A DNA stretch of 64,000 nt from a virus. Lineage: Duplodnaviria > Caudoviricetes. Both the position numbers and the translations under genes were made by a program. Shown here one piece after another: positions 4,593-62,426 of the stretch (position 1 is its first letter; the number at the start of each line of letters is the position of its first letter). The notes under the pieces are model-generated. The model worked only from the letters and a program-made list of their open reading frames with translations, had not been told where the DNA came from and did not search any database. Location of the stretch: positions 4,227 through 68,226 of the IMG/VR virus record IMGVR_UViG_3300020577_001581. One strand, given 5' to 3'.

Positions 4593-5045
4593 ATGAAAAT
4601 GTCATTTGTTACTAAAGATGTTACTATTGTTTGGGAAAAGGGCCACTATCCTACAAAAAAGAGTTACGATAGAGTACATAAAGATTCATTAGTTTACAAA
4701 GAAATATTTGCAATAGTTCTAGTTAATCACTTTCCCCCAGGAAATGTATGGAATGGATACCGTATATATTCCTTACGTACAAAACATTTTGTAACTAAAC
4801 TAGGTTCACAAAACTTAGACACTTTAAAGAAACTTTGTGAATATCTTCTTAAAGATTACTATGGAGTATTCCGACAAGATGATGTAGCAAAGTTTCAAAA
4901 TCAAATGTATGTACGTTATGGAACTACTTCACTTGATCAAATGGAAGAATGGTTAAAGGAATTGACTTTTAAAAATAAACCATTCTATCCTTTGACAATC
5001 AAAGTAACAAAAGAAATTGAGGAAATAGAAGATGAGCAAGAGTAA
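4593..5045 (+). CDS. hypothetical protein
   Basis: 150-aa ORF tightly packed in the operon. Confidence 0.65.
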   Translation: MKMSFVTKDVTIVWEKGHYPTKKSYDRVHKDSLVYKEIFAIVLVNHFPPGNVWNGYRIYSLRTKHFVTKLGSQNLDTLKKLCEYLLKDYYGVFRQDDVAKFQNQMYVRYGTTSLDQMEEWLKELTFKNKPFYPLTIKVTKEIEEIEDEQE

Positions 5046-5610
5046 GCTGCAACTACATCTAGATAATTGGAAAGATTGTACTAGATGCAAACTACATGAG
5101 GTTAGACGTAATGTAGTTTTGCTACGTGGAACAGTACCGTGTGATATCCTGTTCATAGGTGAAGCTCCAGGAGAGTCAGAGAACGCGTTAGGTAAGCCTT
5201 TTAGAGGCCCTGCAGGCAATCTGTTACAAGAGATCATAGAAGTTACTCAGCAGCATACAAAAGGCTACACCTACGCAATGACTAACCTTATCGGATGCAT
5301 ACCCAAAGTAGATGGAGAGAAGCTAACTAGTCCACCGAAAGAATCTGTCACAGCATGCTTTCCACGTATCAACGAACTAGTTGAATTATGTAATCCAAAA
5401 GGATTAATATTAGTTGGAAATGATGCTCAAAAGTTTTTTGAACTACATAACAATAAACTACTACAACAAATAAAATTTATTAAGATTCAACATCCAGCAG
5501 CTATTTTACGTAAACCACAAGTATCATGGGGATTAGATTGTCAAAAAATTGAAATACAAATAACTGACTTTATAGAAGAATTGTACGGAGATAATAATGC
5601 TACTAATTAA
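5032..5610 (+). CDS. family 4 uracil-DNA glycosylase
   Basis: CTRC Fe-S ligands, FIGEAPG motif A, F.GPAG, TNLIGC.P, HPAAILR motif B. Confidence 0.92.
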   Translation: MSKSKLQLHLDNWKDCTRCKLHEVRRNVVLLRGTVPCDILFIGEAPGESENALGKPFRGPAGNLLQEIIEVTQQHTKGYTYAMTNLIGCIPKVDGEKLTSPPKESVTACFPRINELVELCNPKGLILVGNDAQKFFELHNNKLLQQIKFIKIQHPAAILRKPQVSWGLDCQKIEIQITDFIEELYGDNNATN

Positions 5611-5773
5611 TCGTGGAATTAATCAAGAAATTCTTTTATCATTAGAAGGATATAAATTAGGAAGGATTATAGTAACAGAAATTAGTGGTAAAAAAGTAAC
5701 ACTTGGATTTGAATTAGACAAAAATGTTGAAATAAAAAGGAAAGAATTAGATGACAAACAAACTAAAGAGTAA
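5597..5773 (+). CDS. csrA: CsrA/RsmA-like RNA-binding translational regulator (58 aa, missed by ORF track)
   Basis: MLLINRGINQEILL...GRIIVTEISGKKVTLGFELDKNVEIKRKEL fits the CsrA pattern ML.L.R...E.I.I...I.V..I.G..V.LG...P..V.I.R.E; GGAG SD; overlaps both neighbours. Confidence 0.75.
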   Translation: MLLINRGINQEILLSLEGYKLGRIIVTEISGKKVTLGFELDKNVEIKRKELDDKQTKE

Positions 5774-6842
5774 ACTGGAGAAGGTAACTAATCCACATTC
5801 CGGAGTGATCACTAGCTCGTTGTGGAAAGGTCCATACAAAGCTTGCAGTGAATCAGGTGTAACGTTCTCTATGCTCTCTCGATTCCTGATCTGTAGAGAG
5901 CGATTCAGGATAATGTACGTGGAAGGTCTAGGAAAGGAAGAACGGTTTGACGGTAAAATAGAGTTTGGTCAAATGTGGCATTTATGCGAAGAAGCATACA
6001 AACGTAAAGAAGATCATATTCAATTAGTTAGGAAATATGTTACTAACTTAAAGAAAAAATATCAATTGTATCACGAAGCAATTGAGGATGAATATGATAA
6101 ATGTATAGTAACTTTTCCACTATACGTTAAATATTGGGAACATCATCCCGATGAAAAAAATATGCTGAATCTCTTCCAGGAAAAAATATTCGGATATGAA
6201 TACACACTTCCAATATCAGGAAGAAAAATATATCTTAGAGGTAAGATAGATTCAGGAGATAAGATACAAGGGGATGGAATTTACGTAGCAGATAATAAAT
6301 CAAAAGGTAATATCAATTTAATTGAAATTCAAAATCAATTAAATTTTGATTTACAAATGATGATGTATCTACTTGTACTTAAATTAGATCGTACTATTAT
6401 TAAAGATCCTAAACAAATCAAAGGAATACGTTATAATATTGTAAGACATTCATTACATAAACATACTAAAAAAGATGGTACTAGAGAGAAATTTCGAGAC
6501 AGGTTAAAGGGTATAATAGAAGAAGATTTAGCTAGTGAACCTGATAACTGGTTTTCCAGATTCCAAGCTTTGATTAATGAACATGATATGAGTGAATTTC
6601 TTACTACATCATTCAATCCTATTTTAGAACAATTATGTGATTGGTGGGATTGTTTAAATGGTAGTAGAGTAAACGAGAATGCACATAAATACCAGAACTT
6701 TAGATATCCGTATGGTATTTATCATGTTCTTAATCAAGGTGGATCAGGAGAGCTAGATCTGTATTTAAACAAAAAATCTAAAGTAGGATTAATTAAACGA
6801 AAATTATTTAGGGAGCTAAATGCAGATGGCTATAGTGAATAA
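5751..6842 (+). CDS. PD-(D/E)XK exonuclease (Cas4/RecB-like)
   Basis: FSMLSRF..C.ERF, RGKID, ADNKSK, Q..MY. Confidence 0.8.
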   Translation: MTNKLKSKLEKVTNPHSGVITSSLWKGPYKACSESGVTFSMLSRFLICRERFRIMYVEGLGKEERFDGKIEFGQMWHLCEEAYKRKEDHIQLVRKYVTNLKKKYQLYHEAIEDEYDKCIVTFPLYVKYWEHHPDEKNMLNLFQEKIFGYEYTLPISGRKIYLRGKIDSGDKIQGDGIYVADNKSKGNINLIEIQNQLNFDLQMMMYLLVLKLDRTIIKDPKQIKGIRYNIVRHSLHKHTKKDGTREKFRDRLKGIIEEDLASEPDNWFSRFQALINEHDMSEFLTTSFNPILEQLCDWWDCLNGSRVNENAHKYQNFRYPYGIYHVLNQGGSGELDLYLNKKSKVGLIKRKLFRELNADGYSE

Positions 6843-7701
6843 ACAAACAATGCAACCTGCTAAAAAACCGTTCGTACCTATCAAAGGTCAAGTAAACACA
6901 CAACAAAAGAAACCAAAGTCAGCATGGGAATTACCTGAAACTATCAAAATTATGTTATATGGTAGATCAGGTACAGGCAAAACAACATTATGGAGTACGT
7001 TTCCAGGTCCTATTTGTGCATGTATTACAAGTAATATCAAAAGTACAGGAGAATTACGAAGTATAGATACTCCTGAAATGCGTAATAAAATTACTCCTTA
7101 TATCATAAAAGAATCAAGTGAACTTACTTGGATTCTAGAAAATGCAGCATCTGAAGGATTTAAAACTATCGTATTAGATCATGTTACAGGTATGCAGGAT
7201 TTAATTCTTAAAGAAGTAACAGGAGTAGATAAGATACCTGAACAAAAAAACTGGGGAATATTTACCAGAGAGCAATACGGACAAGCTGTAGCACAAGCAA
7301 AGGAATATCTTAGATTAGCTCTTGATTTACCTATGAATACTGTTATAATAGGACAAGAGAGAGTATTCAATAGTAAAGATGAAGGTAGTGATGATGAACA
7401 ATTAAAACCGCTTGTAGGAGCTGATACTTCACCAGCTCTAGGTAGGTGGTTAAATCCTACAGTAGATTATCTACTTCAATGTTTCGTACGTCCTAAGTAT
7501 ATTACAAAAGAAATAGATAATGCAGGTAAAAAAGTTAAAAAGGAGGTAAGAGTAGAAGGAGAAGTAGAATATTGTGTACGTTGTGAACCTCATGAAACTT
7601 TTATGACGAAGTTTCGATCTACTGTTAAGTATGATCAACGTACTAAAGTTATAATCAATCCCGATTATAACAAAATCATGAAAGCAATTAAAGGTAATTA
7701 A
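6820..7701 (+). CDS. AAA ATPase (Sak4/AAA_24-like recombination protein)
   Basis: MLYGRSGTGKTT Walker A, IVLDH Walker B; start may be 6826. Confidence 0.85.
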   Translation: MQMAIVNKQTMQPAKKPFVPIKGQVNTQQKKPKSAWELPETIKIMLYGRSGTGKTTLWSTFPGPICACITSNIKSTGELRSIDTPEMRNKITPYIIKESSELTWILENAASEGFKTIVLDHVTGMQDLILKEVTGVDKIPEQKNWGIFTREQYGQAVAQAKEYLRLALDLPMNTVIIGQERVFNSKDEGSDDEQLKPLVGADTSPALGRWLNPTVDYLLQCFVRPKYITKEIDNAGKKVKKEVRVEGEVEYCVRCEPHETFMTKFRSTVKYDQRTKVIINPDYNKIMKAIKGN

Positions 7702-7742
7702 GTAACTAACTGTTTAACTCATTTTCTTAAAGAGGTTTTACG

Positions 7743-8650: not shown

Positions 8651-8674
8651 CACTACTTCCCCCAGGAGTATGTT

Positions 8675-9025: not shown

Positions 9026-11140
9026 ATGTTGGCGATAGATACTGAGACTACTGGAGTAGATTTCTATCATGGTGCTAGACCTTTCTTTGTTAGTATGTGT
9101 AATACAGAAGGTGAAGTTACATATTGGGAATTTGAAGTAAATCCTAAAACACGTCAAGTCATTTACAAAGAAGATGATTTAAAAGACATAGCAAACGTAA
9201 TGAAGCAAGAAAAAGATGGTTACTTGCTTCATAATTGTATATTCGATTATAATGCATTAGCATCTATAGGATTGTGGAAATATATAGACATTAATGAAGT
9301 ATTCGACAAAACACATGATACACTTCTGACTGCACATCTTTTACATAGCAATAAAGAAAAATCATTAGATAATATGTGTCTTCGTTGGCTTAATCTAGAC
9401 ATAACAAAGTATGAAAAAGATCTAGAGAAAGCTGTAAAGTATTGTCGTACACACGCTAAAGATTTAGGATGGAAGATAGCAAAGAAAGATAAAGAAGATG
9501 AAAATAGTATGCCCAGTGCAATAGATAAAACTTGGCAGTATGATTATTGGTTACCTAAAGCATTAGCTAAAAAATTGAATTATCCTGAAGATCATAAGTA
9601 TTACACTGTACTTCAAAAGTATGCATTACCAGACGTAGAAGTACTTAATCATCTTAATAGACGTTTACAAAAAGAAGTACGTCAACGTAAATTAGGAGCT
9701 CTATTAGATGAACGTAGAAAGCTTCTAAAAATTACTTACAATATGCAGCGAACAGGTATTACAGTATCTAGTAAAACGTTAGATAAAGTAAAAAATGAAT
9801 TCATAACAGAATCAACTAACTTAGCTACAAAATGTGTTAACATAGCAAAGTGTTTTAACTATGACTTAGTACTTCCTAAAGGAGGTTCTAACAAGTCATT
9901 AAATAGTTTTATGCTTGATACTCTCAAGTTACCGCCCAGGTACAGTAAAAAAGCTAAAACAAATAAACCATGTCTTGATAAGAATGTAATGTTACATTAT
10001 CAAGAGACATTGCCACAACGTAGTATTAGTTTGTTATTTATTAACAGTCTTCTTAGTAAGCGTGCAAGAGATGTTGCAGTTTCTTACATGAAGAGTTATC
10101 AACGTTTTTGGTTACCTACTGAACATAGTGATTATTTTGTATTACATCCTTCTCTTAATTTAACAGGTACTAATACATTACGTTGTTCATCTTCTCATCC
10201 TAATGAACAGAATATTTCTAAACGAGAAGGATTTAATGTACGTCAATGTTTTGGACCTAAACCTGGAAGAGAGTGGTGGTCATTAGACGGTAAGAATGTG
10301 GAATTGCGTATTCCAGCGTATGAATCAGGACAAAAAGAGTTTGTAGATTTATTTGAAAAACCTGATGAACCTCCTTACTATGGATCGAATCACCTTCTTA
10401 TATTTCATGTGTTATGGCCTGATTTATGGGAAGCTGCCGTAAAAGAAATAGGAGAGGAACAGGCTGGAAACTATTGCAAGAAAAAATACAATAGTACATA
10501 CTACCAATGGACCAAAAATGGAAACTTTGCAATCCAATATGGAGCTGTTGATAGAGAAGATGGAGAAGGTACAGCAGATAGAGCATACCATCAGGTAGGA
10601 GCTCACAGTAAGTTAAAGAAACGATTTACTAAACAAGAGCAGTTAAATCAATACTGGCTTAAGTTTGCTAATAAACATGGTTATGTCGAAACTATACCAG
10701 ACAAGAATGTTGATCCAACCAGAGGGTATCCATTACTTTGTAAACGAACAGATTATGGACGTGTTAAACCTACAATTCCATTGTCTTACCATGTTCAAGG
10801 TACGGCAATGTGGTTAACTGCTAGATGTAAGGTAGAAGTATCTTATAAACTAGAAGACTACCATAAACTAGATGGATTAGATTACTATTTGATTATGGAA
10901 GTACATGATGAAATTGTTTTAGATTTTCCTGCTAAAGGTAAGGAGGCCCTAGAATACGATCTTTCCCAGGAGAAATTAGCTAAGCAGAAAAATACTAAGG
11001 TATTGAATTATCGTTCGAATTTGGGTAAAATTAGAGAACTACAGAAGATAATGGAAAAGTGTGGAGAAGGTTTAAGTATACCTACTCCTTTTGGTGCTGA
11101 GTATCACGAAACAAACTGGGCAAAAGGTATTACAGTATGA
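9026..11140 (+). CDS. polA: family A DNA polymerase with 3'-5' exonuclease, no 5'-3' exonuclease
   Basis: Exo I DTETTG, Exo II HN..FD, Exo III Y...D; motif A DGKNVELR, motif B KNGNFAIQYG, motif C VHDE. Confidence 0.95.
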   Translation: MLAIDTETTGVDFYHGARPFFVSMCNTEGEVTYWEFEVNPKTRQVIYKEDDLKDIANVMKQEKDGYLLHNCIFDYNALASIGLWKYIDINEVFDKTHDTLLTAHLLHSNKEKSLDNMCLRWLNLDITKYEKDLEKAVKYCRTHAKDLGWKIAKKDKEDENSMPSAIDKTWQYDYWLPKALAKKLNYPEDHKYYTVLQKYALPDVEVLNHLNRRLQKEVRQRKLGALLDERRKLLKITYNMQRTGITVSSKTLDKVKNEFITESTNLATKCVNIAKCFNYDLVLPKGGSNKSLNSFMLDTLKLPPRYSKKAKTNKPCLDKNVMLHYQETLPQRSISLLFINSLLSKRARDVAVSYMKSYQRFWLPTEHSDYFVLHPSLNLTGTNTLRCSSSHPNEQNISKREGFNVRQCFGPKPGREWWSLDGKNVELRIPAYESGQKEFVDLFEKPDEPPYYGSNHLLIFHVLWPDLWEAAVKEIGEEQAGNYCKKKYNSTYYQWTKNGNFAIQYGAVDREDGEGTADRAYHQVGAHSKLKKRFTKQEQLNQYWLKFANKHGYVETIPDKNVDPTRGYPLLCKRTDYGRVKPTIPLSYHVQGTAMWLTARCKVEVSYKLEDYHKLDGLDYYLIMEVHDEIVLDFPAKGKEALEYDLSQEKLAKQKNTKVLNYRSNLGKIRELQKIMEKCGEGLSIPTPFGAEYHETNWAKGITV

Positions 11141-11662: not shown

Positions 11663-12516
11663 ACATTAATGAAGTTCGTGGATTACCAGTAGAAGAAAGA
11701 TTCTTGTATTGGATTAAAGAACGTGAATCTATACGTAAGAAAAAAGAAGGTGAATTAGCTAGACCTTGGACAGATGATGAAATTCTTCATACGTATAGAT
11801 TTTGTAATGTTCGTAGAATGGATGACAAAGTAAGTAAATGGTTACAAAATAATTGGTATACTCCATATAAAGATAATTATAATATGTTATATGGAGTAGC
11901 AATAGCTCGTTTTATTAACTTACCAAAAACATTAAAACAAATAGAATCTGATATATTTAAAACTAATTATATAAACTATGAAAAACTAGTAGAAAAAATT
12001 AGAAATATAAAAAAGAAACAAGGTGTTATATTTAATGCTGCTTATGTTGTACGTGGAAACGACGGAGCTGATAAAATAGAATCAGTTATCATAGCAAACG
12101 TTAAACCATTACAAACTAAGCGAGTGTTCATTGATACTAGTTCAATGTACTATACCTGGAAAGAATTATGTAATTGTTTTGGTTTTGGTTCATTCATGGC
12201 TGGTCAAGTTACAGCAGACTTGAGACATGCTCTAACAGGTGAATGGAAAGATAAACTATCATGGGCACCAGAAGGTCCAGGCTCACAAAGAGGACTACAA
12301 AGACTTAAGAAACAACCTATTAACGCTATTAATCGTCATTGGTTAAAAGATTTTAGGAGTATAATTCTAAACGGGTTAGCATTAAATCTTCCCCAGGAGA
12401 TTACAGGACGATTAGAGGCACATGATTATCAAAACTGTTTATGTGAATTTGATAAATACGAAAGAATGTTACACGGACAAGGTAGACCTAAACAAAAATA
12501 TAAAAGAGATAAATAA
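11659..12516 (+). CDS. DNA base hypermodification protein, aGPT-Pplase / 5-hmdU DNA kinase helical-domain family
   Basis: ERE.IR.KK......PWTDD.IL..YRFCNV.R.DD, G.F.A.Q...DL, GPGS.RGL, QNCLCEFDKY.R. Confidence 0.8.
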   Translation: MNINEVRGLPVEERFLYWIKERESIRKKKEGELARPWTDDEILHTYRFCNVRRMDDKVSKWLQNNWYTPYKDNYNMLYGVAIARFINLPKTLKQIESDIFKTNYINYEKLVEKIRNIKKKQGVIFNAAYVVRGNDGADKIESVIIANVKPLQTKRVFIDTSSMYYTWKELCNCFGFGSFMAGQVTADLRHALTGEWKDKLSWAPEGPGSQRGLQRLKKQPINAINRHWLKDFRSIILNGLALNLPQEITGRLEAHDYQNCLCEFDKYERMLHGQGRPKQKYKRDK

Positions 12517-14942: not shown

Positions 14943-15581
14943 ATGAAGAAAAATGATTCAAAAAAAGATATCATAATCATCGAACCTCATTGCGATGATG
15001 CTTTCCTGTCGCTGGGATGGCACATAGAAAAATGGAAAAAAGATTTTAATATAACTATCATTACAGTATTCTGTAATCCAAAACGAGCAATTGAAGCAGC
15101 TAACTATGCAAAATCATTAGATATTAATAGTATTGTAATTAAACCTTTTCTCCAGGAAACAGAAATGTTAGGAGAATATACAATTAATACTATTAATCCT
15201 ATATTAAACTATTTAGTAGACAATTGTTTATACAATAAAAAATATAACATACAAACTATTTTATGTCCTATAGGATTACAACATCCTGATCATAAAAATA
15301 TAAGATTTACTTTAGATAGTGGATTAATTAAATCTAAAGAATTAGTACAATATTACTTAGATACACCTTATCAAAGTAAACAAAAATTAGCTGGTGAATT
15401 ACTTGAAAATGTAAAAGGTTATGTGATAGAATCTATATTATATCCTAATGCTAGGAAATGGAGACATTGTGTAACATTTAAAAGTCAAGCAAAGTTTTTT
15501 CATTTTAACAAAGAACTTAAAGAATCAATATTACCAGAAATTATTATAAGGAGTATAAATGTTAACAACGATACTAATTGA
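14943..15581 (+). CDS. PIG-L/LmbE-family N-acetylhexosamine deacetylase
   Basis: EPHCDD and HPDH metal/catalytic motifs; start moved to 14943 because the upstream part overlaps the reverse promoter. Confidence 0.8.
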   Translation: MKKNDSKKDIIIIEPHCDDAFLSLGWHIEKWKKDFNITIITVFCNPKRAIEAANYAKSLDINSIVIKPFLQETEMLGEYTINTINPILNYLVDNCLYNKKYNIQTILCPIGLQHPDHKNIRFTLDSGLIKSKELVQYYLDTPYQSKQKLAGELLENVKGYVIESILYPNARKWRHCVTFKSQAKFFHFNKELKESILPEIIIRSINVNNDTN

Positions 15582-16165: not shown

Positions 16166-17311
16166 ATGCATTTTCGAACAAAGAATGTTAATACAGCATT
16201 CAAAAAACTGGTTACTTTATTCCATTACAGTAAAGATAGTAATATTGTAAAGGAGCAATCACGTAATGGACCAGTATTAATGTGTGTAGAGCCTGTTACA
16301 CTTACTTACAATAATCCGTTAGAAAGAGTATTATTTAATCCTAAACGTGATTGTAATCCTTTCTTTCATATGTATGAAGCTTTGTGGATGTTAGCTGGAA
16401 GGAATGATGTAAAGTCATTATCTACTTACACTTCCAAGATGGCACAATATTCAGACGATGGCATTACGTTCAATGGAGCATATGGTAAACGATGGTATAA
16501 GTATGTTGCTACTGAAAAGAAAATTACTGAAAATGAAACAACTACTTATCAGTATGAAGTATCTAATCAGCTTACCAGATTAATAAATCATCTAAAAGCT
16601 AATCCTACATCAAGACGTGCAGTCTTACAAATGTGGGATGTTTATGATGATTTAGAAAAAGTAGATACATCTAAGGATGTGTGTTGTAATCTTTCTGTAT
16701 GTTTTAGTATTAGAACAGTTACAGAACCTGATCAAAATTATTTAATCGATTCAAACAAGATGTATAAAACTGTTTCATACCTGGATATGACAGTATTTAA
16801 TCGTAGCAATGATTTGATAAAAGGTATGTTAGGAGCTAACTACGTACATTTTACTTTCCTCCAGGAATATATTGCAGAATGTTTAGAAGTAAAAGTAGGA
16901 AAGTATAATCAGATAAGTAATAATTTACATGTTTATCCAGATGCTATTTGGAAGCCTATTGAATGGTTAAAATGTAATACAGACATGTATGCTACTAAAC
17001 CTTCATTCGATAAACATATTCCACTATTACACAATGTTACTAAATTAGAATTTGATAGAGAATTACAAGATGTTGTAACTATGTGTGGAAATATAAAAAC
17101 TCTTAAAAAAGTAAATCCTAATGATTATAAATCATGTTTTATTAAAACAGTAGCAATACCAATGTTTAAAGCATATGCTTATTATAAAGAACCAGAGTCA
17201 GAAATTAACCATTTAATGTATTCTTGGTTAGATGAAATTAATTTACCTGATTGGAAGCTAGCAGCTACACAATGGATAAATAATAGATTAAATAAACTTC
17301 AAAACAAATAA
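16166..17311 (+). CDS. thymidylate synthase homologue, probable dUMP hydroxymethyltransferase
   Basis: NPFF...EALWMLAGRND, YG.R, SRRAVLQMWD, DVCCN catalytic Cys, RSND...GAN, NNLHVY, C-terminal DW..A..W..R extension. Confidence 0.85.
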   Translation: MHFRTKNVNTAFKKLVTLFHYSKDSNIVKEQSRNGPVLMCVEPVTLTYNNPLERVLFNPKRDCNPFFHMYEALWMLAGRNDVKSLSTYTSKMAQYSDDGITFNGAYGKRWYKYVATEKKITENETTTYQYEVSNQLTRLINHLKANPTSRRAVLQMWDVYDDLEKVDTSKDVCCNLSVCFSIRTVTEPDQNYLIDSNKMYKTVSYLDMTVFNRSNDLIKGMLGANYVHFTFLQEYIAECLEVKVGKYNQISNNLHVYPDAIWKPIEWLKCNTDMYATKPSFDKHIPLLHNVTKLEFDRELQDVVTMCGNIKTLKKVNPNDYKSCFIKTVAIPMFKAYAYYKEPESEINHLMYSWLDEINLPDWKLAATQWINNRLNKLQNK

Positions 17312-18056: not shown

Positions 18057-20297
18057 ATGTCTGATATACCAGAACCTCTAAAAGCTTTTACATTTCATGG
18101 TATGGATTTAAAAGTAGGTCCTACTCAGTCTACTGGTGAATGTCCGTTTTGTGGTAAGAATAAATTCTATGTATCTAATACATCTACTAAATGGGATTGT
18201 AAAGCTTGCGGTATGGCTGGTAACTCTCTAGAATTTATACGTAAGTTATGGGAAAAGTCTTTACCTGCATCAAAATGTGATGATGTAGAAGAATTCAAAA
18301 AAGATAGAAAATTATTATCTGTAGAGATTTTAGATCTTTGGGGTGTAAGGAAGTCTTTGTTAAATGGACAATGGATTGTACCTGGGTTCGCTCTATTTGG
18401 AAGAAAGCTACAACAGCTTTATCGCTATGCTACCATCAAAGGAGGCAAGCGGGCTCTTTTTGCTACTCCTGGTTTTAAACATGGTATTTTTGGTATGTGT
18501 AATTGGAATAATAAAGCTAAGGAAGTACATGCTTTAGAGGGACCGTGGGATGGAATGGCTTATCATGAAACTATGTTAAGCTTTAGAAAATCAGATACAG
18601 GAATTTCACCTACTAGTAATAAAGCAGTATCATTAGCAAACGATATCAATATTGTTGCATTTCCTGGAGCTAACGTATTCTCTGATGAATGGTCAAATAT
18701 AGGTGAATCACGTAAGCTAGTACTATTCTATGATAATGATCATGCTCGTAAAGAAAACGGTTCTACTATTATGGGAGCTGGTCGAGCAGGTTGTAAGAAG
18801 ACTGTAGAAAAGTTATGGAAAGCAGATAGTCCACCAAACGAGATTCATTATTTACAATGGAAAGAACCTGAAGGCTTTGATGCATCACTACCAAACGGGT
18901 ATGATGTTAGAGATATACTAACTAAAAAAGAACATACTAGTGTATTTCAACGTAAAGATACTCTAAAACTATTGCAATCAAAAATAAAACCTATTCCCCA
19001 GGAATGGATAAAGGGACGTACAACAGCTGCAGCAAAAGCAGGTAAAGTAGAGATATTACCATTAGCCTGTAACGAATGGACTATCTTACGTGAATCTTGG
19101 CGTAAGGCTATGAAATGGCCTGATCCTGGAGAAGGATTAGATTATGCACTAACGGTAATGCTAGCAAGTGTTATTTCTACAGAATCAGCAGGGGATCAAT
19201 TATGGGTTAAGATAATTGGACCAGCTGCATGTGGTAAATCAACATTGTGTGAAGCATTAGCTATTGCAAAGAAATACACAAGCAGTAAATCTACTATTAC
19301 AGGGTTTCATAGTGGATTCAAGACTGATTCTAAGGGACAAGTAGATAATTCTATTGTATCAGGACTATTTAATAAAACACTTATAACTAAGGATGGAGAT
19401 ACTTTACTTCAAGCTCCTAATATCAATCAGATCTTATCAGAAGCTAGAGATATCTATGATAGAGTATCTAGAGCACAATACCGTAATGGTGTATCTAGAG
19501 AATATGATCAAATTAATATGACCTGGATATTGTGTGGTACTTCATCATTACGTACATTAGATAGTTCTGAGTTAGGAGAACGTTTTTTATCTTGTATTAT
19601 TATGGATGGTATTGATGATGATTTTGAATATCAAATAGCAATGAGAGCAGCACAACAAGCAAAAATAGATATAGGTACACAAGCAGGACCAAAGACAGAG
19701 AATCCAGCTAAGATGATGGCACGACAATTAACAGGAGGATATGTAGAATATTTACGAGAGAACAGTATTGAACTTTTATCTAGTATCAATCTACCTGATG
19801 AATACTTAGATAGATGTGTTAGGTATGCAAAATTTGTAGCTATACTTCGTGCTAGACCATCGCTCAAACAAAATGAATCAGTAGAACGTGAATTCTCTAC
19901 ACGTTTAACTACTCAAATAGTAAGACTAGCAACAGCTGTTGCTGCTATATACAATTACAAGGAAGTAAATGAAGAAGTTATGCACATAGTCAAGAAAGTA
20001 GCTATAGATACATCTAAAGGATCAACGTTAGGTATTGTAAAATATCTATTCGAACATGGAGAGAAAGGAGCATCGTGGCAAGCTATTCAAATGAATTGCC
20101 ATTCTGAAGATGAAACACTTAAGGGATTAATTAAATTTCTTATTCGTATTAAAGTAGTAGAATCGTACGAACCGGAAATAATCTCATTCCGTAACAGGAC
20201 TACAAAAGGTCCTAAAAGATATCGTTTACCTCAAAAGATTTACGAACTTTATAAGTTTGTAATGGGTGGTAAAGAAGTGAAATTAACTAATCAATAA
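18057..20297 (+). CDS. primase-helicase (Zn finger + TOPRIM + P-loop ATPase)
   Basis: CPFC...CKAC, EGPWD, YDND, GPAACGKST. Confidence 0.85.
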   Translation: MSDIPEPLKAFTFHGMDLKVGPTQSTGECPFCGKNKFYVSNTSTKWDCKACGMAGNSLEFIRKLWEKSLPASKCDDVEEFKKDRKLLSVEILDLWGVRKSLLNGQWIVPGFALFGRKLQQLYRYATIKGGKRALFATPGFKHGIFGMCNWNNKAKEVHALEGPWDGMAYHETMLSFRKSDTGISPTSNKAVSLANDINIVAFPGANVFSDEWSNIGESRKLVLFYDNDHARKENGSTIMGAGRAGCKKTVEKLWKADSPPNEIHYLQWKEPEGFDASLPNGYDVRDILTKKEHTSVFQRKDTLKLLQSKIKPIPQEWIKGRTTAAAKAGKVEILPLACNEWTILRESWRKAMKWPDPGEGLDYALTVMLASVISTESAGDQLWVKIIGPAACGKSTLCEALAIAKKYTSSKSTITGFHSGFKTDSKGQVDNSIVSGLFNKTLITKDGDTLLQAPNINQILSEARDIYDRVSRAQYRNGVSREYDQINMTWILCGTSSLRTLDSSELGERFLSCIIMDGIDDDFEYQIAMRAAQQAKIDIGTQAGPKTENPAKMMARQLTGGYVEYLRENSIELLSSINLPDEYLDRCVRYAKFVAILRARPSLKQNESVEREFSTRLTTQIVRLATAVAAIYNYKEVNEEVMHIVKKVAIDTSKGSTLGIVKYLFEHGEKGASWQAIQMNCHSEDETLKGLIKFLIRIKVVESYEPEIISFRNRTTKGPKRYRLPQKIYELYKFVMGGKEVKLTNQ

Positions 20298-20325: not shown

Positions 20326-20862
20326 ATGTCTATATTAACTGGGCCTGAAATACAAAAACAAGTATATTCAGGTAATATAAAAATAGATCCTTTTGTTGTT
20401 GCAAATATTAACCCTAACAGTTATAATCTATCTATAGGAACTAAAATACTGGAGACATGTGGACTAGAGTATTATATAGACAAAAGAGGCAACAAACGAT
20501 ATAAACCTACATTCAAACAATTAGAAATAACAAATAATGGTTTATATCTTTATCCAGGAAAAGGTTATCTTGCTGCTAGCGTAGAAGTAACTAATAGCGG
20601 TAATTATGTTCCTGAAATTGACGGTAGATCAAGTTTAGGAAGATTATTTACATTAGTTCATTGTACAGCAGGATATGGGGATATAGGATTTAATGGTACT
20701 TGGACATATGAAATAGTTCCATTAGTACATGAAATAATTGTATATCCTGGTGATATGTTATGTCAAATACGATTCACTACCAGTATAGGAGATATACTAC
20801 CTTATGATCAAACAGGTAGATATCAAAATCAAATAGATCCTACAGAATCAAAAGGTATATAA
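20326..20862 (+). CDS. dcd: dCTP deaminase
   Basis: INPNSYNLSIG, GRSSLGRL, AGYGDIGFNG..T.E, GRYQNQ..PT.S. Confidence 0.9.
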   Translation: MSILTGPEIQKQVYSGNIKIDPFVVANINPNSYNLSIGTKILETCGLEYYIDKRGNKRYKPTFKQLEITNNGLYLYPGKGYLAASVEVTNSGNYVPEIDGRSSLGRLFTLVHCTAGYGDIGFNGTWTYEIVPLVHEIIVYPGDMLCQIRFTTSIGDILPYDQTGRYQNQIDPTESKGI

Positions 20863-32001: not shown

Positions 32002-32039
32002 TAGTACAATCGGGCTATCAATCTTCCCCAGGATATATC

Positions 32040-47142: not shown

Positions 47143-47696
47143 TGTTAGTATCTTTAGAAGATGCAATATTCTTTTATCATCCAACAGCACAACAACCAAT
47201 AGACTTTTTATTACATAACAAAAACTTAGGTGAAGGTCCATATATACTAGAATGGAATGTTAAAGTTAATGGTGTATTAGTACCGCAACCCACACCAGAA
47301 CAGTTAGAAGCTGTTACACAAGAACAAGTAGATGCATTAAAGTTATCAATTATACAAACTGAAGCATCTAAAGCAGCTTTATTGTCTACTAATCCTGTTG
47401 ATATGGCTAACCGTACAGATGCTAACTTACAATGGTCTAGAATAAATGATGAAGCAGAAATAACAAGTTATATATTAGATACTATAGGAATTAATAAAGA
47501 TAAATTTATTACCGATATAACTAATAGACGTAAAGCATTTTTAGCTATTCCTGGTAATAAGTTTGAACAAACACCTACTGATCCTGAGGTAATGTATAAT
47601 CAGTTAGTACGTTTACCACAATCATATATAGTAAACATTATTATAAAAGCAATCCAAGCAGGTATAGGTGATCCAATAATCCTTCCTCCAGGATAA
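47142..47696 (+). CDS. fibre assembly protein (XkdW-like)
   Basis: I.EW.......PQPT.EQL; start set at 47142 (AGGAG SD, stop-start overlap). Confidence 0.55.
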   Translation: MLVSLEDAIFFYHPTAQQPIDFLLHNKNLGEGPYILEWNVKVNGVLVPQPTPEQLEAVTQEQVDALKLSIIQTEASKAALLSTNPVDMANRTDANLQWSRINDEAEITSYILDTIGINKDKFITDITNRRKAFLAIPGNKFEQTPTDPEVMYNQLVRLPQSYIVNIIIKAIQAGIGDPIILPPG

Positions 47697-48819: not shown

Positions 48820-49638
48820 GTGAAACATAAGTTAATCAAATTGTTTTCAATTCTTAGTTTAGCACTACTAATGACATGTAGTGTTAATGCAACAGATAAT
48901 CCTGGATGGATACACTTTCCTAAGCAACAAAAAGATCAAACGCCTACACCTGTAGTTATTGATACTACTAAAATTGGTGCTGATCAATTGTATGTTGTTG
49001 ATTGTGATCTGGACGTAGAAGCAGACGTATTTCCTCCAGGAATTGCATTACTATCTACAGACAAAGGTCCTATCAAAATACGTGGAAAATTTGTTGATAG
49101 TACTTTAAGTAAATCTGAAACACGTACATATAACGGCAAAACTGTATTAACTATTGAACCGATTCAATCAGGTACAGTAACTTTACTTATCGTACCTACA
49201 GGAAAAGGTAAAGCAGATTGGATTAAGAAAAATCTAACTATTAACATTGGTGAAATACCTGACGTTAATCCTAATCCTAAACCTACACCTAAGCCTACTC
49301 CTGATCCTGTTGTAGTAACTGATCAAAAGCTTTTTATAGTGTACGTAGAATCGGATGGAAACTTTGTTAATAATCGTGGAGTGTTTATATCTAGTCCAGA
49401 GATTGTAGCACGAATTAAAGATAAAGGTCACAAAGTACGAATAGTAGATAAAGATGTAATAGGTATTGATGGTCAACCTCCTAAAGATGTTAAACGATTT
49501 CTTGATGCATGCGTAGGTAAAGACTATCCACAATTGTTTATTGTCGATCAAAAAGGAGCTACACTAAAACAATTTGACTGGAGTAATGATAAACAACCTA
49601 CTGACTTGATTAACATTCTTAAATCCTTTGGAGGTTAA
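48820..49638 (+). CDS. secreted protein with Pro-rich linker and thioredoxin-like C-terminal domain
   Basis: Signal peptide; PNPKPTPKPTPDP; YPQLFIVD..G. Confidence 0.6.
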   Translation: MKHKLIKLFSILSLALLMTCSVNATDNPGWIHFPKQQKDQTPTPVVIDTTKIGADQLYVVDCDLDVEADVFPPGIALLSTDKGPIKIRGKFVDSTLSKSETRTYNGKTVLTIEPIQSGTVTLLIVPTGKGKADWIKKNLTINIGEIPDVNPNPKPTPKPTPDPVVVTDQKLFIVYVESDGNFVNNRGVFISSPEIVARIKDKGHKVRIVDKDVIGIDGQPPKDVKRFLDACVGKDYPQLFIVDQKGATLKQFDWSNDKQPTDLINILKSFGG

Positions 49639-49644: not shown

Positions 49645-50481
49645 ATGTCTTTTGCATTAACTACTACTTTACCTGATGGATATATTGTTCGTTTAGGTAA
49701 TAATCCTCCAGATGAAAACAAAGTAAAACTTAAATTACCGTTATACGGTAGTGTTCCTAGTGCTCCATTGATTCCAGAAACAGAATGGAAACGATTAATT
49801 GATCTTATGGGAAATGATTTTAATCATCCTCATTTGCCATATGTTCATGATCAAGATGGTATCGGACAATGTAATTGTGATGCTGGAGCAGCTGCAATAG
49901 AGTCAGAACGTATAGCACAAGGCTTACCTCCTGTTGTTCTTTCTGCAGCTGATTTATATGATCGTATTAATGGCGGTAGGGATGATGGCAGTACCTTAGA
50001 AGATGCATTATCTGAACTTATGTCTAATGGTATAGGTACTAAAGAAGATTGTGGTACTACTTTATGGACTAGAGGATTTAAACGAGCTACATCTGAACAA
50101 AGAGCTAAGTATAAGATTACTAAAGCTTTCTTGTGTCCTGATGTAAATCATATTATCTCTGCTGTATTATCTGGATTTAAACTTGTATCGGGTATATGGT
50201 GGTATGATAGTTACTCTTCTCCAGGAAGTGATGGATGGTTACCTAATCCTAGAGGAGGGAGAGGAGGGCATGCAGTATTTGGTTATAAAGCAAACTATCG
50301 TATGATAGGTAATCAAATACAATACGGTGTTGTACATCAAAATAGTTGGCGTCCAACATGGGGAATTAATGGTAGATGTGTATTCCCGACTACTGTTTAC
50401 CAGCAAGGTGGAATCGGTGGATGGTATGCTGTTAAAGGTGTTACGGATGAAGGTGGGATAATTCCTACGCCTGCAGCGTAA
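49645..50481 (+). CDS. papain-like (C1) cysteine peptidase
   Basis: DQ..IGQC (Gln, Cys), GGHAV (His), QNSW...WG..G (Asn). Confidence 0.8.
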   Translation: MSFALTTTLPDGYIVRLGNNPPDENKVKLKLPLYGSVPSAPLIPETEWKRLIDLMGNDFNHPHLPYVHDQDGIGQCNCDAGAAAIESERIAQGLPPVVLSAADLYDRINGGRDDGSTLEDALSELMSNGIGTKEDCGTTLWTRGFKRATSEQRAKYKITKAFLCPDVNHIISAVLSGFKLVSGIWWYDSYSSPGSDGWLPNPRGGRGGHAVFGYKANYRMIGNQIQYGVVHQNSWRPTWGINGRCVFPTTVYQQGGIGGWYAVKGVTDEGGIIPTPAA

Positions 50482-52573: not shown

Positions 52574-52912
52574 ATGTATCTATCTTTAAGACTAGGAATT
52601 TCCTTAGAAGAAACGTTAAAACTTTCTTTTAAGGAATTTCTTTTATGGCAAGATTATTTTAAAGAAGAATGGAATACACCAAATCGTACAGACCATTATC
52701 TCATGCAAGTTGCTTTAAAAATAATTGAAACAAATACTAAAAATTCAAAAACTAAATTGAATGATCTCAAGATACCATTTAAAGAGGCAAAGAAAAAACC
52801 TGGTAAGTTTGTACATACAAAACAATCAATTGAGGCAACAAAAAGTAGATGGAGAGCAGCCGCTGGTTATGATCCAATAACTCTTCCCCAGGAAGAATCG
52901 CAGGAACAGTAA
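52574..52912 (+). CDS. tail assembly chaperone extension (gpT-like)
   Basis: -1 frame relative to gpG; L.L.LG.S..E.....S..EF..W. Confidence 0.7.
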   Translation: MYLSLRLGISLEETLKLSFKEFLLWQDYFKEEWNTPNRTDHYLMQVALKIIETNTKNSKTKLNDLKIPFKEAKKKPGKFVHTKQSIEATKSRWRAAAGYDPITLPQEESQEQ

Positions 52913-56627: not shown

Positions 56628-56677
56628 ATATTATTAACTGTCAACAACTTCTTCCCAGGAATTTTAAGGAGCATGTA

Positions 56678-58432: not shown

Positions 58433-59638
58433 ATGGGATTAACTTATATACCTGAGATAGATAAATACCTTAGTCATATAGAATTAGATATATGGGAAGG
58501 TAAATCTATATTACATCCTAACCTAGTTAAATACTATAAAGATTTATGGACTAAGGAATTTTATGATAAACATCCTGAATTTAAACATACTATTAACATC
58601 ACTGTAGGAAGTAATCATAACGCAACAGGTACGAGTATACAAGAGTCTACAAAATTATCTTCTAAATCATTTACTGAAGCTGATACTAAAATAGTTCCAG
58701 AATCTGTTGATATCAAACGTAAGTTAAAACTTATTACATCATGCTCCTATCGTATTCCTGGAGAGAATATAACATGTGGCTGTAACCACTATTGTACACT
58801 AAAAGCATTACCTGCACAATCAATGTTATGTTTATCTTGTGTAGAAAATAAATTATCTAAAATGTCAAAAGATGACATTACTAAATTAGATGAACAAAAA
58901 GGATATATGAGCAGAATTAAACGTCCTCTTTTTTGGGCTTATGGTGTAACTACTGTTCCTGGAAGAAGATCTAATACTCTCCCACGTACATTAGCTTCAT
59001 TACGTTTGGCAGGATTCTATGAACCTCGTTTGTTTATAGATGGTTGTTCTGCTATGGGAGCTGATTCATACGAAAAAGAATTCAAGTTACCTGTTACGTC
59101 CAGGGATAAAAACATACGTACTTTTGGTAATTGGTATCTAGCACTACATGAGTTATTTATACGTAATCCATTAGCTAATAGGTATGCAATATTCCAAGAT
59201 GATTTAGTTACTTATCGTAATTTACGTGGATACTTAGATGAATCACCGTATCCAGATAAAGGGTATCTAAATCTTTTTACCTTCCCTGTAAATCAAGAAA
59301 TCAACAAAAAAGAGAATGGTGATAAGCAAGGATGGTTTAAAAGTAACCAGATGGGAAAGGGAGCTGTTGCTCTAGTGTTCGATAGAGATGCAACATTAGC
59401 TCTTTTATCATCATTTCATATGGCTGAACGTCCTACAGATCAAACTAGAGGACATAGAGCAGTAGATGGAGCCATCGTTACAGCACTAAAACAAGTAAGT
59501 ATTTCAGAGTACTGCCATAATCCTAGTCTGGTTTATCACATAGGTGATATATCGAGTATGAATAATCCCAAACATCCTAATACACAATGTTTCTTAGGTG
59601 AAGAATTCGACGCAACTAACCTTTTAGAAAAAATGTAG
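58433..59638 (+). CDS. Cys-cluster protein fused to a C-terminal GT-A glycosyltransferase
   Basis: C..R...CGC..YC.LK...C..C, then VTTVP.R...L..TL.SL..AG, FQDD, HIGD.S. Confidence 0.65.
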   Translation: MGLTYIPEIDKYLSHIELDIWEGKSILHPNLVKYYKDLWTKEFYDKHPEFKHTINITVGSNHNATGTSIQESTKLSSKSFTEADTKIVPESVDIKRKLKLITSCSYRIPGENITCGCNHYCTLKALPAQSMLCLSCVENKLSKMSKDDITKLDEQKGYMSRIKRPLFWAYGVTTVPGRRSNTLPRTLASLRLAGFYEPRLFIDGCSAMGADSYEKEFKLPVTSRDKNIRTFGNWYLALHELFIRNPLANRYAIFQDDLVTYRNLRGYLDESPYPDKGYLNLFTFPVNQEINKKENGDKQGWFKSNQMGKGAVALVFDRDATLALLSSFHMAERPTDQTRGHRAVDGAIVTALKQVSISEYCHNPSLVYHIGDISSMNNPKHPNTQCFLGEEFDATNLLEKM

Positions 59639-59793
59639 TTCTTTTTTAAATAAAGGTATCTGCCGAGCGAACAATAGACAGGTACCCAAAATAAAACATG
59701 GGTAAGGTTTTGGAAAAACACAGGTAAGAATTCCAAGAAGGGTGTATATTTCGCATTGAGTACATACCCTCATTCTCTCCAGGAGTAGTAGAC

Positions 59794-60150: not shown

Positions 60151-60522
60151 TGATTATTTCATTAGAACTCCTAAAACGCTATTAGACGCATCCTAAGCCC
60201 TAGATGGAATAAGACTCACCTAAAGAGCGATAGTCGAAATTAGGGGTATCCTGTAATCGGGAAACAGGCATCTAGAGAACTATGGAACTAGAGGTACAGA
60301 GAATGAGGTAGGTAGAGAGATGAGTAGAGAGATAGGTAGGGAATACTCTAATTATCGTATTATATAATATACCCCTATATAGTAATAATATATATATATA
60401 TTATTATATAAATAGAGTATCCCGTCTAAATATCTTATCAGTTTTCAGGATTAGACGCAAGTGAGAAAATAAAAAATCCCCTAGAGGAATACTCTAGAGG
60501 ATACTATATATTCTTATAAATA

Positions 60523-60777: not shown

Positions 60778-60951
60778 AACTCTCTCCCAGGAATGTTTTC
60801 GACTACACTACTATATACGTCCAAAACTGGAAATAGTTTCAATAATTCTGGAAAGAATCTCGAATTATTTTCTGGTATGAATTTTTGAGGTACTAGAATA
60901 TGAGACATAGATATGATATAATAACTTTCGCTAAGACCGTGTGTAGGCACG

Positions 60952-60990: not shown

Positions 60991-60995
60991 TTATT

Positions 60996-61445: not shown

Positions 61446-61477
61446 AACTCTTCTCCAGGAAAATAGTAGAACAGGAA

Positions 61478-61951
61478 CTAGGAACAGGAATATCTACCTT
61501 CTGCATACATTTGAGCAGCTTCTAGGCTGGGTAATTCAATAACATATGCTTCTTCTTGTCCATCTGATCTTGTAATATACCTATAATCAGTAAGAACATA
61601 AGATTTACCAGTTTTCTTTTTAGCTAACTTTTTATCAAACGAAATACCAAATCTACCATCCCTAGAACTCCATATTTTAATATCACTATTACTAACTTCT
61701 TCTACATCCCATAATAGCTTACATATGTTAGGTACTCTCCTCCATTTCAGACTATCAACGTATGCTAGAGCATCTTTCAAAACAGGAAATATTTTTACTT
61801 CATTAGATGCTTTACCGTTTTTATCAATTACATAGTATTTCTCTTGAGGCATCTGCCATATAATAGTGAATACACCGTCTGGATCAATCCATAAGGTACG
61901 TTCACCATTGTCTAGATTAATCTTACGCCATTTAATAGTTGATTCGAGCAT
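61478..61951 (-). CDS. hypothetical protein with internal tandem duplication
   Basis: Two KWR...W...DG.F.I...Y...F/L..L..A..Y units; start set at 61951. Confidence 0.65.
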   Translation of the reverse strand: MLESTIKWRKINLDNGERTLWIDPDGVFTIIWQMPQEKYYVIDKNGKASNEVKIFPVLKDALAYVDSLKWRRVPNICKLLWDVEEVSNSDIKIWSSRDGRFGISFDKKLAKKKTGKSYVLTDYRYITRSDGQEEAYVIELPSLEAAQMYAEGRYSCS

Positions 61952-62084
61952 GTAAATCTTTCCCAGGAATAGTAAGGTGGAACTAGGTAAAGTATAGCAG
62001 AAATAAGAATATTTTTCACTACTACAAATTATACTAGGTATGTGATATATTAGATTATATGACAAATACTCACTGGAGGATAAA

Positions 62085-62405
62085 ATGAGTGTATTTGATG
62101 ATTTACATAAAGCTTATAAAAAGCAAGAAAAAGATGTAATCAAATATAAAAATAAGGAGAATATAATAGACCCTCAAACATGGATACCTATTGTAGAAGC
62201 TCCTAAAGACGGTACACATATATTATTACGTTTAGTGGTTAATGAAAAAGTATTGATGTGTGTAGGATACTGGAAAGAAGAACCATTACCTAAAGTAAGT
62301 AAATTTGTATTTAAAAGTTTATTAGATAATAAAGAGTATCTTGTTAATCCTTATCAAGTTGGTGAAATAACACACTTTCAATTGTTACCTGATACGGACG
62401 TATAA
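62085..62405 (+). CDS. hypothetical protein (DUF551-like W.P...APKDGT motif)
   Basis: WIPIVEAPKDGT.ILL...THF..LP; GGAGG SD. Confidence 0.65.
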   Translation: MSVFDDLHKAYKKQEKDVIKYKNKENIIDPQTWIPIVEAPKDGTHILLRLVVNEKVLMCVGYWKEEPLPKVSKFVFKSLLDNKEYLVNPYQVGEITHFQLLPDTDV

Positions 62406-62426
62406 CTCTTTCCCAGGAATATACAA

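Follow-up and report, generated by a model that had tools for sequence, protein, structure and literature searches.

The window analysed here is a 64,000-nt stretch of the 68-kb genome of an uncultured Caudoviricetes phage (G000), a contig assembled from a metagenome, with a GC content of 33%. The phage encodes recombination-type genes (a PD-(D/E)XK exonuclease, an AAA_24 protein, a RuvC-like resolvase and a UvrD-like helicase), a CsrA homologue and genes for hmU hypermodification. The modified DNA, together with the fact that no integrase was detected, suggests that the phage is virulent. A scan of genome contigs returned matches of only 26-27% identity. Dispersed through the window is an asymmetric word with a consensus of about 17 nt, TAAM-TYTYYY-CCAGGA-A, in which a pyrimidine run is followed by CCAGGA; its conserved span extends from -10 to +6 relative to CCAGGA, and the pyrimidine run is degenerate. 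We found 31 copies on the + strand and 5-8 on the - strand (Table 1), with a density in this phage of about one copy per 2 kb. All 16 + strand copies listed in the preliminary description of this DNA, and the single reverse copy that it reported near 35698, are present to within 1-2 nt, and 15 further + strand copies were found.

Table 1. Copies of the word in the window and the associated non-coding region ("CCAGGA from" is the coordinate of the first C of CCAGGA)
Feature	Position	CCAGGA from	Strand	Remark
Copy	4731..4742		+	Within ORF 4593-5045
Copy in PD-(D/E)XK nuclease gene	6170..6181	6176	+	Codes N-L-F-Q-E
Copy past terminator hairpin	8656..8667		+	AGGA 7 nt 5' of ATG 8675
Exact copy, PolA gene	10960..10971		+
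Exact copy, HMUDK-like gene	12387..12398		+
Intragenic copy	15146..15157	15152	+
Copy in thymidylate-synthase homologue	16855..16866	16861	+	Conserved peptide F-L-Q-E; aligned with G002 copy
Copy, primase-helicase gene	18992..19003		+
Intragenic copy, weaker	20548..20559	20554	+
Intragenic copy	21871..21882	21877	+
Intragenic copy	25500..25511	25506	+
Intragenic copy	28042..28053	28048	+
Exact copy, left flank of C5 methyltransferase gene	32022..32033		+	AGGA 6 nt 5' of its ATG
Exact copy, right flank of C5 methyltransferase gene, directly adjoining	32859..32870		+	15 nt 5' of ATG 32886
Copy in gene 35352-37052	36536..36547		+	Conserved peptide S-S-Q-D; aligned with G002 copy
Intragenic copy	38876..38887		+
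Intragenic copy	42414..42425	42420	+
Copy close to gene end	43465..43476	43471	+
Intragenic copy	45129..45140	45135	+
Intragenic copy, weaker	46096..46107	46102	+
Gene-junction copy	47682..47693	47688	+	AGGA 8 nt 5' of ATG 47702
Intragenic copy	49030..49041	49036	+
Intragenic copy	50215..50226	50221	+
Exact copy	52882..52893		+	20 nt 5' of ATG 52914
Intergenic copy	56649..56660		+	17 nt 5' of ATG 56678 (gene with own AAGGAG)
Copy	59773..59784		+	AGGA 9 nt 5' of ATG 59794
Copy at minus-strand gene	60781..60792		+	3 nt from start codon 60777; complement GGGAGAGAG is its Shine-Dalgarno
Copy at minus-strand gene	61449..61460		+	3 nt from start codon 61445
Exact copy at minus-strand gene	61957..61968		+	5 nt from ATG 61951
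Exact copy	62407..62418		+	Between stop 62405 and ATG 62427 (8 nt)
Intragenic copy	63261..63272	63267	+
Inverse copy	58756..58767		-	Far end of late operon
Inverse copy	58957..58968		-	Far end of late operon
Inverse copy	35697..35708		-	Spotted in preliminary description
Inverse copy	29994..30005		-
Inverse copy	19124..19135		-
Non-coding A+T-rich region, 372 bp	60151..60522			Palindrome and direct repeats; + late operon and minus operon converge

The word is strongly over-represented. CCCAGGA ranks as the top over-represented 7-mer of the 68-kb genome (19 occurrences against 2.7 expected, with 2 on the other strand), and YTYYYCCAGGA occurs 21 times on the + strand, where 0.48 are expected, and three times on the - strand, where 0.83 are expected. 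CCAGGA alone is found 46 times on + and 20 times on -, with asymmetric flanks. Allowing up to two mismatches, TCTTYCCCAGGA gave 30 matches, compared with 4.9 in dinucleotide shuffles (shuffle maximum 11). Codon-permutation and synonymous-codon shuffles reduced the 22 occurrences of TYYYCCAGGA to 6.4-7.0, and these residual 6-7 are the intergenic copies, which were left unshuffled. Thus, with protein sequence and codon usage held constant, about 16 intragenic copies stand against about one expected, and therefore the nucleotides themselves are under selection. This bears out, against a codon-aware null and strand by strand, the preliminary claim that the recurrence exceeds chance, and an excess that persists after correction for composition and codon usage is a property of Chi-type words. 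The copies in G000 are also spaced more evenly than random (CV 0.65, P ~0.01).

The same word was found in two distant relatives, G001 and G002 (GC contents of 49% and 54%; core-protein identity 35-58%), and it was absent from 55 other relatives, so that its occurrence is patchy. An intragenic excess over the codon-preserving expectation was again observed in both, and the majority of their copies lie deep in long genes. The antisense strand of G002 carries 18 copies, where 4-6 are expected and none of 200 shuffles exceeded 12, and its sense strand carries 23; opposite-strand copies come as close as 49 bp to each other. Only two of about 20 copies coincide when G000 and G002 are aligned, and both fall on peptides conserved in all relatives (S-S-Q-D and F-L-Q-E), where a single synonymous substitution creates the word. 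Copy positions turn over, and therefore selection maintains how many copies there are and how they are oriented, not where they lie. The three word-bearing genomes do not form a clade and have no gene private to them, which would fit a reader supplied by the host. Likewise, BLAST, whose sensitivity is limited here, found no small gene common to the three.

The preliminary description placed many copies 5-25 nt from a start codon. This is true of eight of the 31 + copies, which lie 6-20 nt from downstream starts, and of three copies at minus-strand genes, but not of the 20 that lie deep inside genes. At these gene starts, ~8 on the + strand and three on the minus strand, the word is a ribosome-binding site or adjoins one: the AGGA of the word lies 6-9 nt 5' of the ATG in five genes, and the three minus-strand genes (starts 60777, 61445 and 61951) use its exact reverse complement. 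Given the AGGA in the word and a purine run such as GGAGAAGAG in its complement, cheap intergenic copies can double as ribosome-binding sites on either strand, and this would account for both the near-start copies and the + orientation retained at minus-strand genes.

The same starts raise the question of whether the word acts in RNA, as an extended ribosome-binding site, a phage CsrA site or an RNA-processing site. Start-associated sequences (SAS elements) provide a precedent, being 13-bp asymmetric words with AGGAG that lie 3-7 bp 5' of start codons in one orientation (PMC3203893). The sense strand is favoured in G000 and G001, the phage has its own CsrA, and a second GGA follows 7-25 nt downstream of 14 of 28 G000 copies, compared with a background of 22%. 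However, the near-universal placement 3-7 bp before starts is not seen, the mRNAs of the minus-strand genes carry the complement of the word, and the antisense strand is enriched in G002. The second GGA was not seen in G001 or G002. Moreover, the predicted fold pairs the GGA with the pyrimidine run and leaves the loop at CCA, and CsrA is also found above cut-off in the word-free relatives G003, G050 and G014. We therefore consider an RNA-level element very unlikely, and these observations, together with the mostly intragenic location of the copies, lend no support to the CsrA site suggested earlier. Internal ribosome-binding sites were likewise not supported, as there was no excess of start codons downstream of intragenic copies. 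A promoter was also considered and not supported: we found no conserved downstream block and no RNA polymerase-sized unknown gene among the annotated proteins, and the copies of G001 and G002 are mostly deep in long genes.

Within the minus operon of G000, the copies keep the + orientation despite the direction of the genes. The preliminary description inferred from the three minus-strand starts listed above, all of which indeed have a + oriented copy, that the word is polar on the DNA and not on the mRNA, and we agree. This DNA-set bias, as is typical of Chi, is evident in G000 (28 to 5), less marked in G001 (15 to 7) and lacking in G002 (23 to 18); a consensus restricted to one strand was similarly seen in G000, partly in G001 and not in G002. 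In a landmark analysis that was conceived post hoc, the final 10 kb of the late operon contained 2, 3 and 7 inverse copies in the three genomes, compared with 0.5, 0.6 and 1.4 in synonymous shuffles. In addition, five co-oriented copies of G000 lie within 2.8 kb, immediately past the origin-like non-coding region of Table 1. This region is a candidate for the landmark, either an origin or a genome end, around which the orientation of the word is arranged.

Polar sites may also be bound by a sequence-specific protein that acts as a roadblock or regulator in the manner of stoperators, shutting off the leftward early operon and suppressing antisense transcription. Stoperators occur in large numbers, are asymmetric and for the most part face the same way with respect to transcription (PMC6550527, PMC9283540). 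The asymmetry of the word, its length of 13-17 bp and its ~30 copies per genome agree with this, the divergent early region holds four copies within 1.6 kb, and at three minus-strand genes the start region is occupied by a copy. However, the word is not reversed along with transcription in the minus operon, G002 is enriched on both strands, 20 of 31 copies are deep in genes, and copy positions turn over. No cognate repressor was recognised in the word-bearing genomes by BLAST, within its limited sensitivity, nor any common small DNA-binding gene, and the phage appears virulent. The operator of a phage regulator proposed earlier can still be entertained in this form, but no candidate protein was recognised for it, no ParB_N domain was found in this phage or in five relatives, and we regard such sites as unlikely.

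We also considered that the word may mark localized nick sites of the kind found in T5, phiKMV-like phages and tf. In this reading, a site-specific nickase would recognise the word and cut a single strand there, in DNA that is packaged or replicating. In phage tf, a 9-nt word occurs 14 times in 46 kb, always on the top strand and always nicked, and the genes form two convergent blocks (PMC3517423). The geometry of G000, with a ratio of 28 to 5 and the + orientation retained in the minus operon, is similar. In contrast, G002 has the word on both strands, with the close opposite-strand pairs noted above, and the positions are not conserved among the relatives studied here, whereas they are similar within the tf/LUZ24 group (PMC3517423). 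Taken together, these observations make nick sites unlikely. The word-bearing genomes also share no private nuclease gene. To our knowledge, the nickases of T5, phiKMV and tf are themselves unidentified, so a missing candidate gene counts for little.

The preliminary description further noted that the core contains CCWGG, a Dcm-type site, and the word could accordingly be the target of a C5 methyltransferase, or of sequence-directed hmU hypermodification in the pyrimidine run. CCAGG does lie within the core, the C5 methyltransferase gene has an exact copy on either side, and the phage has the hypermodification genes. However, CCWGG is a symmetric site, whereas the word is distributed 19 to 2 by strand and its flanks are conserved. 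Moreover, a homologue of the methyltransferase is missing from both G001 and G002, and HMUDK-like genes occur in the word-free relatives G050, G014, G018 and G017, so that the hypermodification target was not supported. We know of no reason why the target sites of a modification enzyme should be enriched 20-40-fold, and either kind of modification target seems exceedingly improbable.

Among the four functions offered in the preliminary description, then, a Chi/KOPS-like polar signal fits best; the operator keeps some standing, and the methyltransferase target and the CsrA site do not. Our leading, although tentative, proposal is a polar DNA word that is read by a translocating enzyme in a Chi-like way. 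The word would be a recognition sequence of ~12-17 nt on double-stranded or unwound DNA, kept by selection in number and orientation, with a copy roughly every 2 kb, and free in position, and it would give a direction-dependent signal to an enzyme travelling on DNA, as Chi does. The reader may be a host helicase-nuclease of the RecBCD/AddAB type, or the UvrD-like helicase of the phage together with its PD-(D/E)XK nuclease. Upon meeting the word from one side, the enzyme would cease degradation in favour of recombination or sparing, and the phage DNA would consequently be handled as self.

Several features stand against a Chi-like reading. Known Chi words consist of 5-8 fixed bases, whereas the present one exceeds that length and includes a degenerate pyrimidine run. 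The phage carries recombination genes of its own, phages of 33%, 49% and 54% GC would require hosts whose enzymes recognise an identical word, and G002 is nearly symmetric between sense and antisense. The landmark analysis, as mentioned, was post hoc. A more doubtful possibility is a clade-spanning 'self' word of phages of 33-54% GC, oriented about an origin- or end-like landmark. Its reader would be a polar DNA enzyme system not yet described, perhaps a helicase and nuclease encoded by the phage for which the word is the Chi site; here too, either strand would be usable as a ribosome-binding site.

Comparison with known systems places these features in context. The start-associated sequences of cluster K phages (PMC3203893) are likewise asymmetric words that include a Shine-Dalgarno core and lie a few bases 5' of the starts of a subset of genes. 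In our phage, however, only about a quarter of the + copies (8/31) precede starts, and the word is genome-wide, including structural genes, and its orientation on the DNA is unchanged where genes lie on the minus strand. Cluster A mycobacteriophage stoperators (PMC6550527, PMC9283540) share the asymmetric 13-bp-class site, the ~30 copies per genome and an orientation bias, but they follow the direction of transcription and need a cognate repressor, in temperate phages; the word ignores gene direction and is mostly intragenic, and no repressor was seen. The interruption sites of T5, phiKMV-like phages and tf (PMC3517423) are also short asymmetric words with tens of copies, (nearly) all on one strand even against gene direction; in contrast, the word described here does not hold its positions among relatives, and in G002 it occupies both strands. 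Compared with Chi, a fixed 5-8-mer, the word is 12-17 nt long with its degenerate run, and one relative shows the enrichment on both strands. Chi-rich lambdoid phages lack a recombination module of their own (PMC12315714), unlike this phage. Nevertheless, the Chi-rich phages (lambdoid LLS, P1; PMC12315714) agree with G000 in having the word as the top over-represented oligomer, with a copy roughly every 2 kb and ~85% of copies in one orientation whatever the gene direction; for the lambdoid phages, 23 Chi sites at a density of one per 1.86 kb are given, of which 20 are co-oriented (PMC12315714). There, as here, the copies sit at cheap positions within coding sequence and come and go, and reading the word would require no phage gene. 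The word is also plentiful in certain phages but missing from their close relatives, as is Chi among lambdoid phages (PMC12315714).

Every copy listed in the preliminary description, which had reported a dispersed, strand-biased motif at gene starts and within genes, was present, and we found 15 further copies on the + strand; the finding is real and larger than first noticed. Conservation around CCAGGA spans positions -10 to +6 and yields the consensus TAAM-TYTYYY-CCAGGA-A (hereafter 'the word'), with no G in the seven positions ahead of the CCAGGA core. CCCAGGA is the top 7-mer of the genome, with 19 copies on the + strand against 2.7 expected and two on the - strand, and YTYYYCCAGGA occurs 21 times on the + strand against 0.48 expected and three times on the - strand against 0.83. 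We also shuffled the codons of each gene, either permuting them or exchanging only synonymous codons. Of 22 observed occurrences of TYYYCCAGGA, 6-7 remained after either shuffle, and these are the unshuffled intergenic copies; therefore, the intragenic excess is about 16 copies against about one. The word is thus enriched under both the Markov model and the codon-aware shuffles, and chance and codon usage are ruled out. The refuting condition set in the preliminary description, counts that equal the Markov expectation, did not hold. As for a protein motif, the frame xxC-CAG-GAx (L/F/S/P-Q-E/D) is preferred, yet all three frames occur (29/15/7 across three genomes) and the word is lost under synonymous shuffles, which rules out this explanation as well. 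In other words, it is the nucleotide sequence that is under selection, rather than proteins or codon usage, and the word is very probably a selected recognition sequence at the DNA level.

Of the 31 + strand copies, 20 are well inside genes and eight are 6-20 nt ahead of + strand start codons, five of them with AGGA at the normal Shine-Dalgarno distance (6-9 nt). Internal ribosome-binding sites were rejected, as start codons 4-11 nt after intragenic copies are no commoner than background. The copies are spaced more evenly than random (CV 0.65, P about 0.01). Three copies adjoin minus-strand genes at their start codons (60777, 61445 and 61951) and retain the + orientation; therefore, what appears in the mRNAs of these genes is the exact complement, TTCCTGG-purine run-TTA(C)ATG, and its purine run acts as the Shine-Dalgarno sequence. 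The three genes are not mutual paralogues, so that duplication of a leader does not explain the element they share. The finding matters for annotation too: a subset of the 'Shine-Dalgarno' sequences in these genomes is shaped by a DNA-level constraint. The gene of a C5 methyltransferase is flanked exactly by two perfect copies, together resembling a cassette bounded by direct repeats, and other copies within 59.8-62.4 kb likewise lie exactly at gene boundaries. Four structural-gene copies have GATCC(A/T)A 13-18 nt upstream, with D-P in frame. Two further words are over-represented on the + strand, CTGATCCT (10 against 1.2 expected) and AAGGTCCTA (7 against 0.6).

The window covers bases 4227-68226 of a 68,226-bp viral contig of 33% GC, with an estimated completeness of 95%. 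The + strand carries about 100 genes and the minus strand a small operon. PolA, a primase-helicase, a UvrD-like helicase, a PD-(D/E)XK nuclease, an AAA_24 protein, a RuvC-like resolvase and a UDG-like protein are encoded; judged by its genes, the genome fits a tailed phage that encodes a replication and recombination module of its own. Genes for hmU hypermodification (HMUDK-like, a thymidylate-synthase homologue and glycosyltransferases), two DNA methyltransferases and a CsrA homologue are also present. No close cultured phage was found, the major capsid protein being at most 30% identical to any, and a search for closer relatives returned best protein matches about 50% identical over one third of the protein. 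A search for the host through an aminotransferase gene gave matches only 26-27% identical. Near-consensus TTGAC(A/G/T) / TATAAT-like promoters occur between genes in the early half, and none comparable was found in the late half (35-60 kb). A 252-aa protein, whose N-terminus gave weak Pfam hits to a helix-turn-helix like that of sigma-70 region 4 and which also matches a PHROG family annotated as 'RNase E', is present only in this phage and two relatives (G002 and G003). In the tail region, one ORF overlaps the end of another by 130 nt in a different frame; a frameshift, a later start codon or a true overlap could each account for this. In the minus operon, whose proteins matched no Pfam family and gave one weak PHROG match (a family of unknown function), two adjacent genes both start with M-K-P-D-L and look like tandem paralogues.

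Coordinates of features in the phage of the window and in related phages
Feature	Sequence	Position	Remark
Near-consensus intergenic promoters, early half	window	2002-2158; 17969-18056; 24711-24813; 28218-28352; 28841-29031	
CsrA homologue	window	5597-5773	inside replication module; Pfam 30.5 bits (cut-off 27)
252-aa protein	window	23282-24040	
C5 methyltransferase gene with flanking copies	window	32022-32870	gene 32040-32851; copies 32022-32033 and 32859-32870
Structural-gene copies preceded by GATCC(A/T)A	window	38860-38887; 45115-45140; 47665-47693; 52865-52893	
Overlapping ORFs	window	46048-47696	46048-47142 and 47013-47696
A+T-rich non-coding stretch	window	60151-60522	372 bp
Minus-strand operon	window	60523-62065	
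M-K-P-D-L genes	window	60996-61445	minus strand; 77 and 71 aa
CsrA homologue	G001	65995-66153	Pfam match
CsrA homologue	G002	61224-61379	Pfam match
CsrA homologue	G003	64505-64669	Pfam match
CsrA homologue	G050	10564-10701	Pfam match
CsrA homologue	G014	55285-55416	Pfam match
Hairpin repeat array	L101 (G050)	13420-15036	about ten 50-110-bp units

Among 80 related viral loci retrieved by alignment of a head protein, the word was seen in only three records: G001 (66.8 kb, 49% GC), a fragment of it (L042) that gives no independent information because it is 99.98% identical, and G002 (66.4 kb, 54% GC), whose genes lie on the other strand. Core proteins of the phage of the window (G000) and these two relatives are 35-58% identical. 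Against a codon-aware null, G001 has 15 sense copies (null 4-6) and seven antisense copies (about 3), and G002 has 23 sense copies (7-9) and 18 antisense copies (4-6, with a maximum of 12 in 200 shuffles). Enrichment on the antisense strand of G002 and the copies at the minus operon of G000 place the function on DNA. An unbiased search for 6-mers flanked by conserved sequence ranked the word first in G000 and G001, and the same search of five equally related complete genomes showed nothing comparable. Words in excess in those five genomes could be explained otherwise. Candidate words of other lineages were rejected: AGTCCTC in G014 is the complement of its Shine-Dalgarno sequence, GAAACCT in G019 lacks conserved flanks, and TCGGTTACA in G050 belongs to a local array of hairpin repeats, in which hairpin-like inverted repeats surround it in a mostly non-coding stretch. 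In G001, TAGATCCTA is over-represented (7 against 0.5 expected, none on the other strand). No gene private to the three word-bearing genomes was found by tblastn or blastp, within BLAST sensitivity, and four poorly resolved single-protein trees do not support these genomes as a clade. The same long word thus persists in phages 20 percentage points apart in base composition, while equally related phages do without it, and its reader is therefore experimentally tractable. Dispersed polar DNA words such as Chi, KOPS, nick sites and stoperators give a rare view of how DNA-moving enzymes tell self from non-self. To our knowledge, most such words in phages are unexplained, and the nicks of T5 and tf have been without a known function for decades.

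We also considered an element acting at the RNA level, including the CsrA site proposed earlier. A second GGA lies 7-25 nt downstream of 14 of 28 copies in G000, against a background of 22%; however, no such excess was found in G001 or G002. Folding shows only the word's own small hairpin, in which the pyrimidine run pairs with GGAA around a loop at CCA, so that the GGA is predicted in the stem, unlike in CsrA sites. In addition, a CsrA homologue occurs within the replication module in all five relatives tested (43-75 bits), word-free ones included. A CsrA site was rejected on these grounds, and we regard any RNA-level element as very improbable. A literature search for phage-encoded CsrA, as a phrase, found no paper. 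The suggestion of a methyltransferase target is likewise not supported: neither G001 nor G002 has a homologue of the methyltransferases. A link to hmU hypermodification was rejected because HMUDK-like genes also occur in relatives without the word, a promoter because the word lacks a downstream block and G000 yielded no phage RNA polymerase, and a ParB-guided system because no ParB_N domain was found in G000 or five relatives. Complementarity to 16S rRNA around CCUGGGGAG and likeness to boxA, Noc-binding sites and KOPS/SRS would each account for only part of the word's variants.

Only two aligned copies are common to G000 and G002. Both sites code for peptides conserved in every relative, S-S-Q-D (gene 35352-37052) and F-L-Q-E (the thymidylate-synthase homologue), and there the word-free relatives differ by one synonymous base, TCT for TCC or CTT for CTC. 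Thus, the word is written wherever the protein allows it cheaply. Such placement bears the mark of selection for copy number and orientation.

The three genomes are organized alike: a long + operon, with early and replication genes first and tail genes last, and a short minus block converge. In G000, the two meet at an A+T-rich non-coding stretch that contains a palindrome with 27-nt arms flanking a TA run, the direct repeats AGAGA..GGTAGG (two copies) and a terminator hairpin; by these features it is a candidate for an origin or an end of the genome. The 'direct terminal repeats' of the G001, G002 and G004 IMG/VR records (23, 127 and 123 bp) were rejected as markers of genome ends: they lie in ordinary sequence, are uninformative on physical ends and look like circular-assembly overlaps. 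In a post hoc analysis, whose region was chosen after seeing the data and which is a lead rather than a test, the last 10 kb of the late operon held two of five inverse copies in G000, three of seven in G001 and seven of 18 in G002, against 0.5, 0.6 and 1.4 in the synonymous-shuffle null. Five co-oriented copies lie within 2.8 kb just past the landmark in G000. Such an arrangement is what one would expect of a signal whose reading enzyme travels either toward a single point or away from it.

We tentatively propose that a translocating enzyme may read the word as a polar signal, in the manner of Chi, and that at gene junctions the word also serves as a ribosome-binding site for genes of either strand. 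That it is a site where a bound protein acts as a roadblock seems unlikely. Stoperators (PMC6550527) and start-associated sequences (PMC3203893) match part of the pattern of the word and fail on orientation or placement. Phage tf, in which a 9-mer occurs 14 times, each time nicked and on the top strand (PMC3517423), shares the single-strand pattern independent of gene direction and is the closest precedent for it. However, G002 is enriched on two strands and the positions of the word turn over, and we consider a nick site distinctly unlikely. Returning to the Chi-like signal, Chi-rich lambdoid phages carry 23 Chi sites, one per 1.86 kb and 20 in one orientation, and no octamer is more frequent in them than Chi, which abounds in some phages and is missing from relatives (PMC12315714). 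Although the word is long and degenerate and G000 has its own recombination genes, the population pattern of these lambdoid phages is the best match to that of the word.
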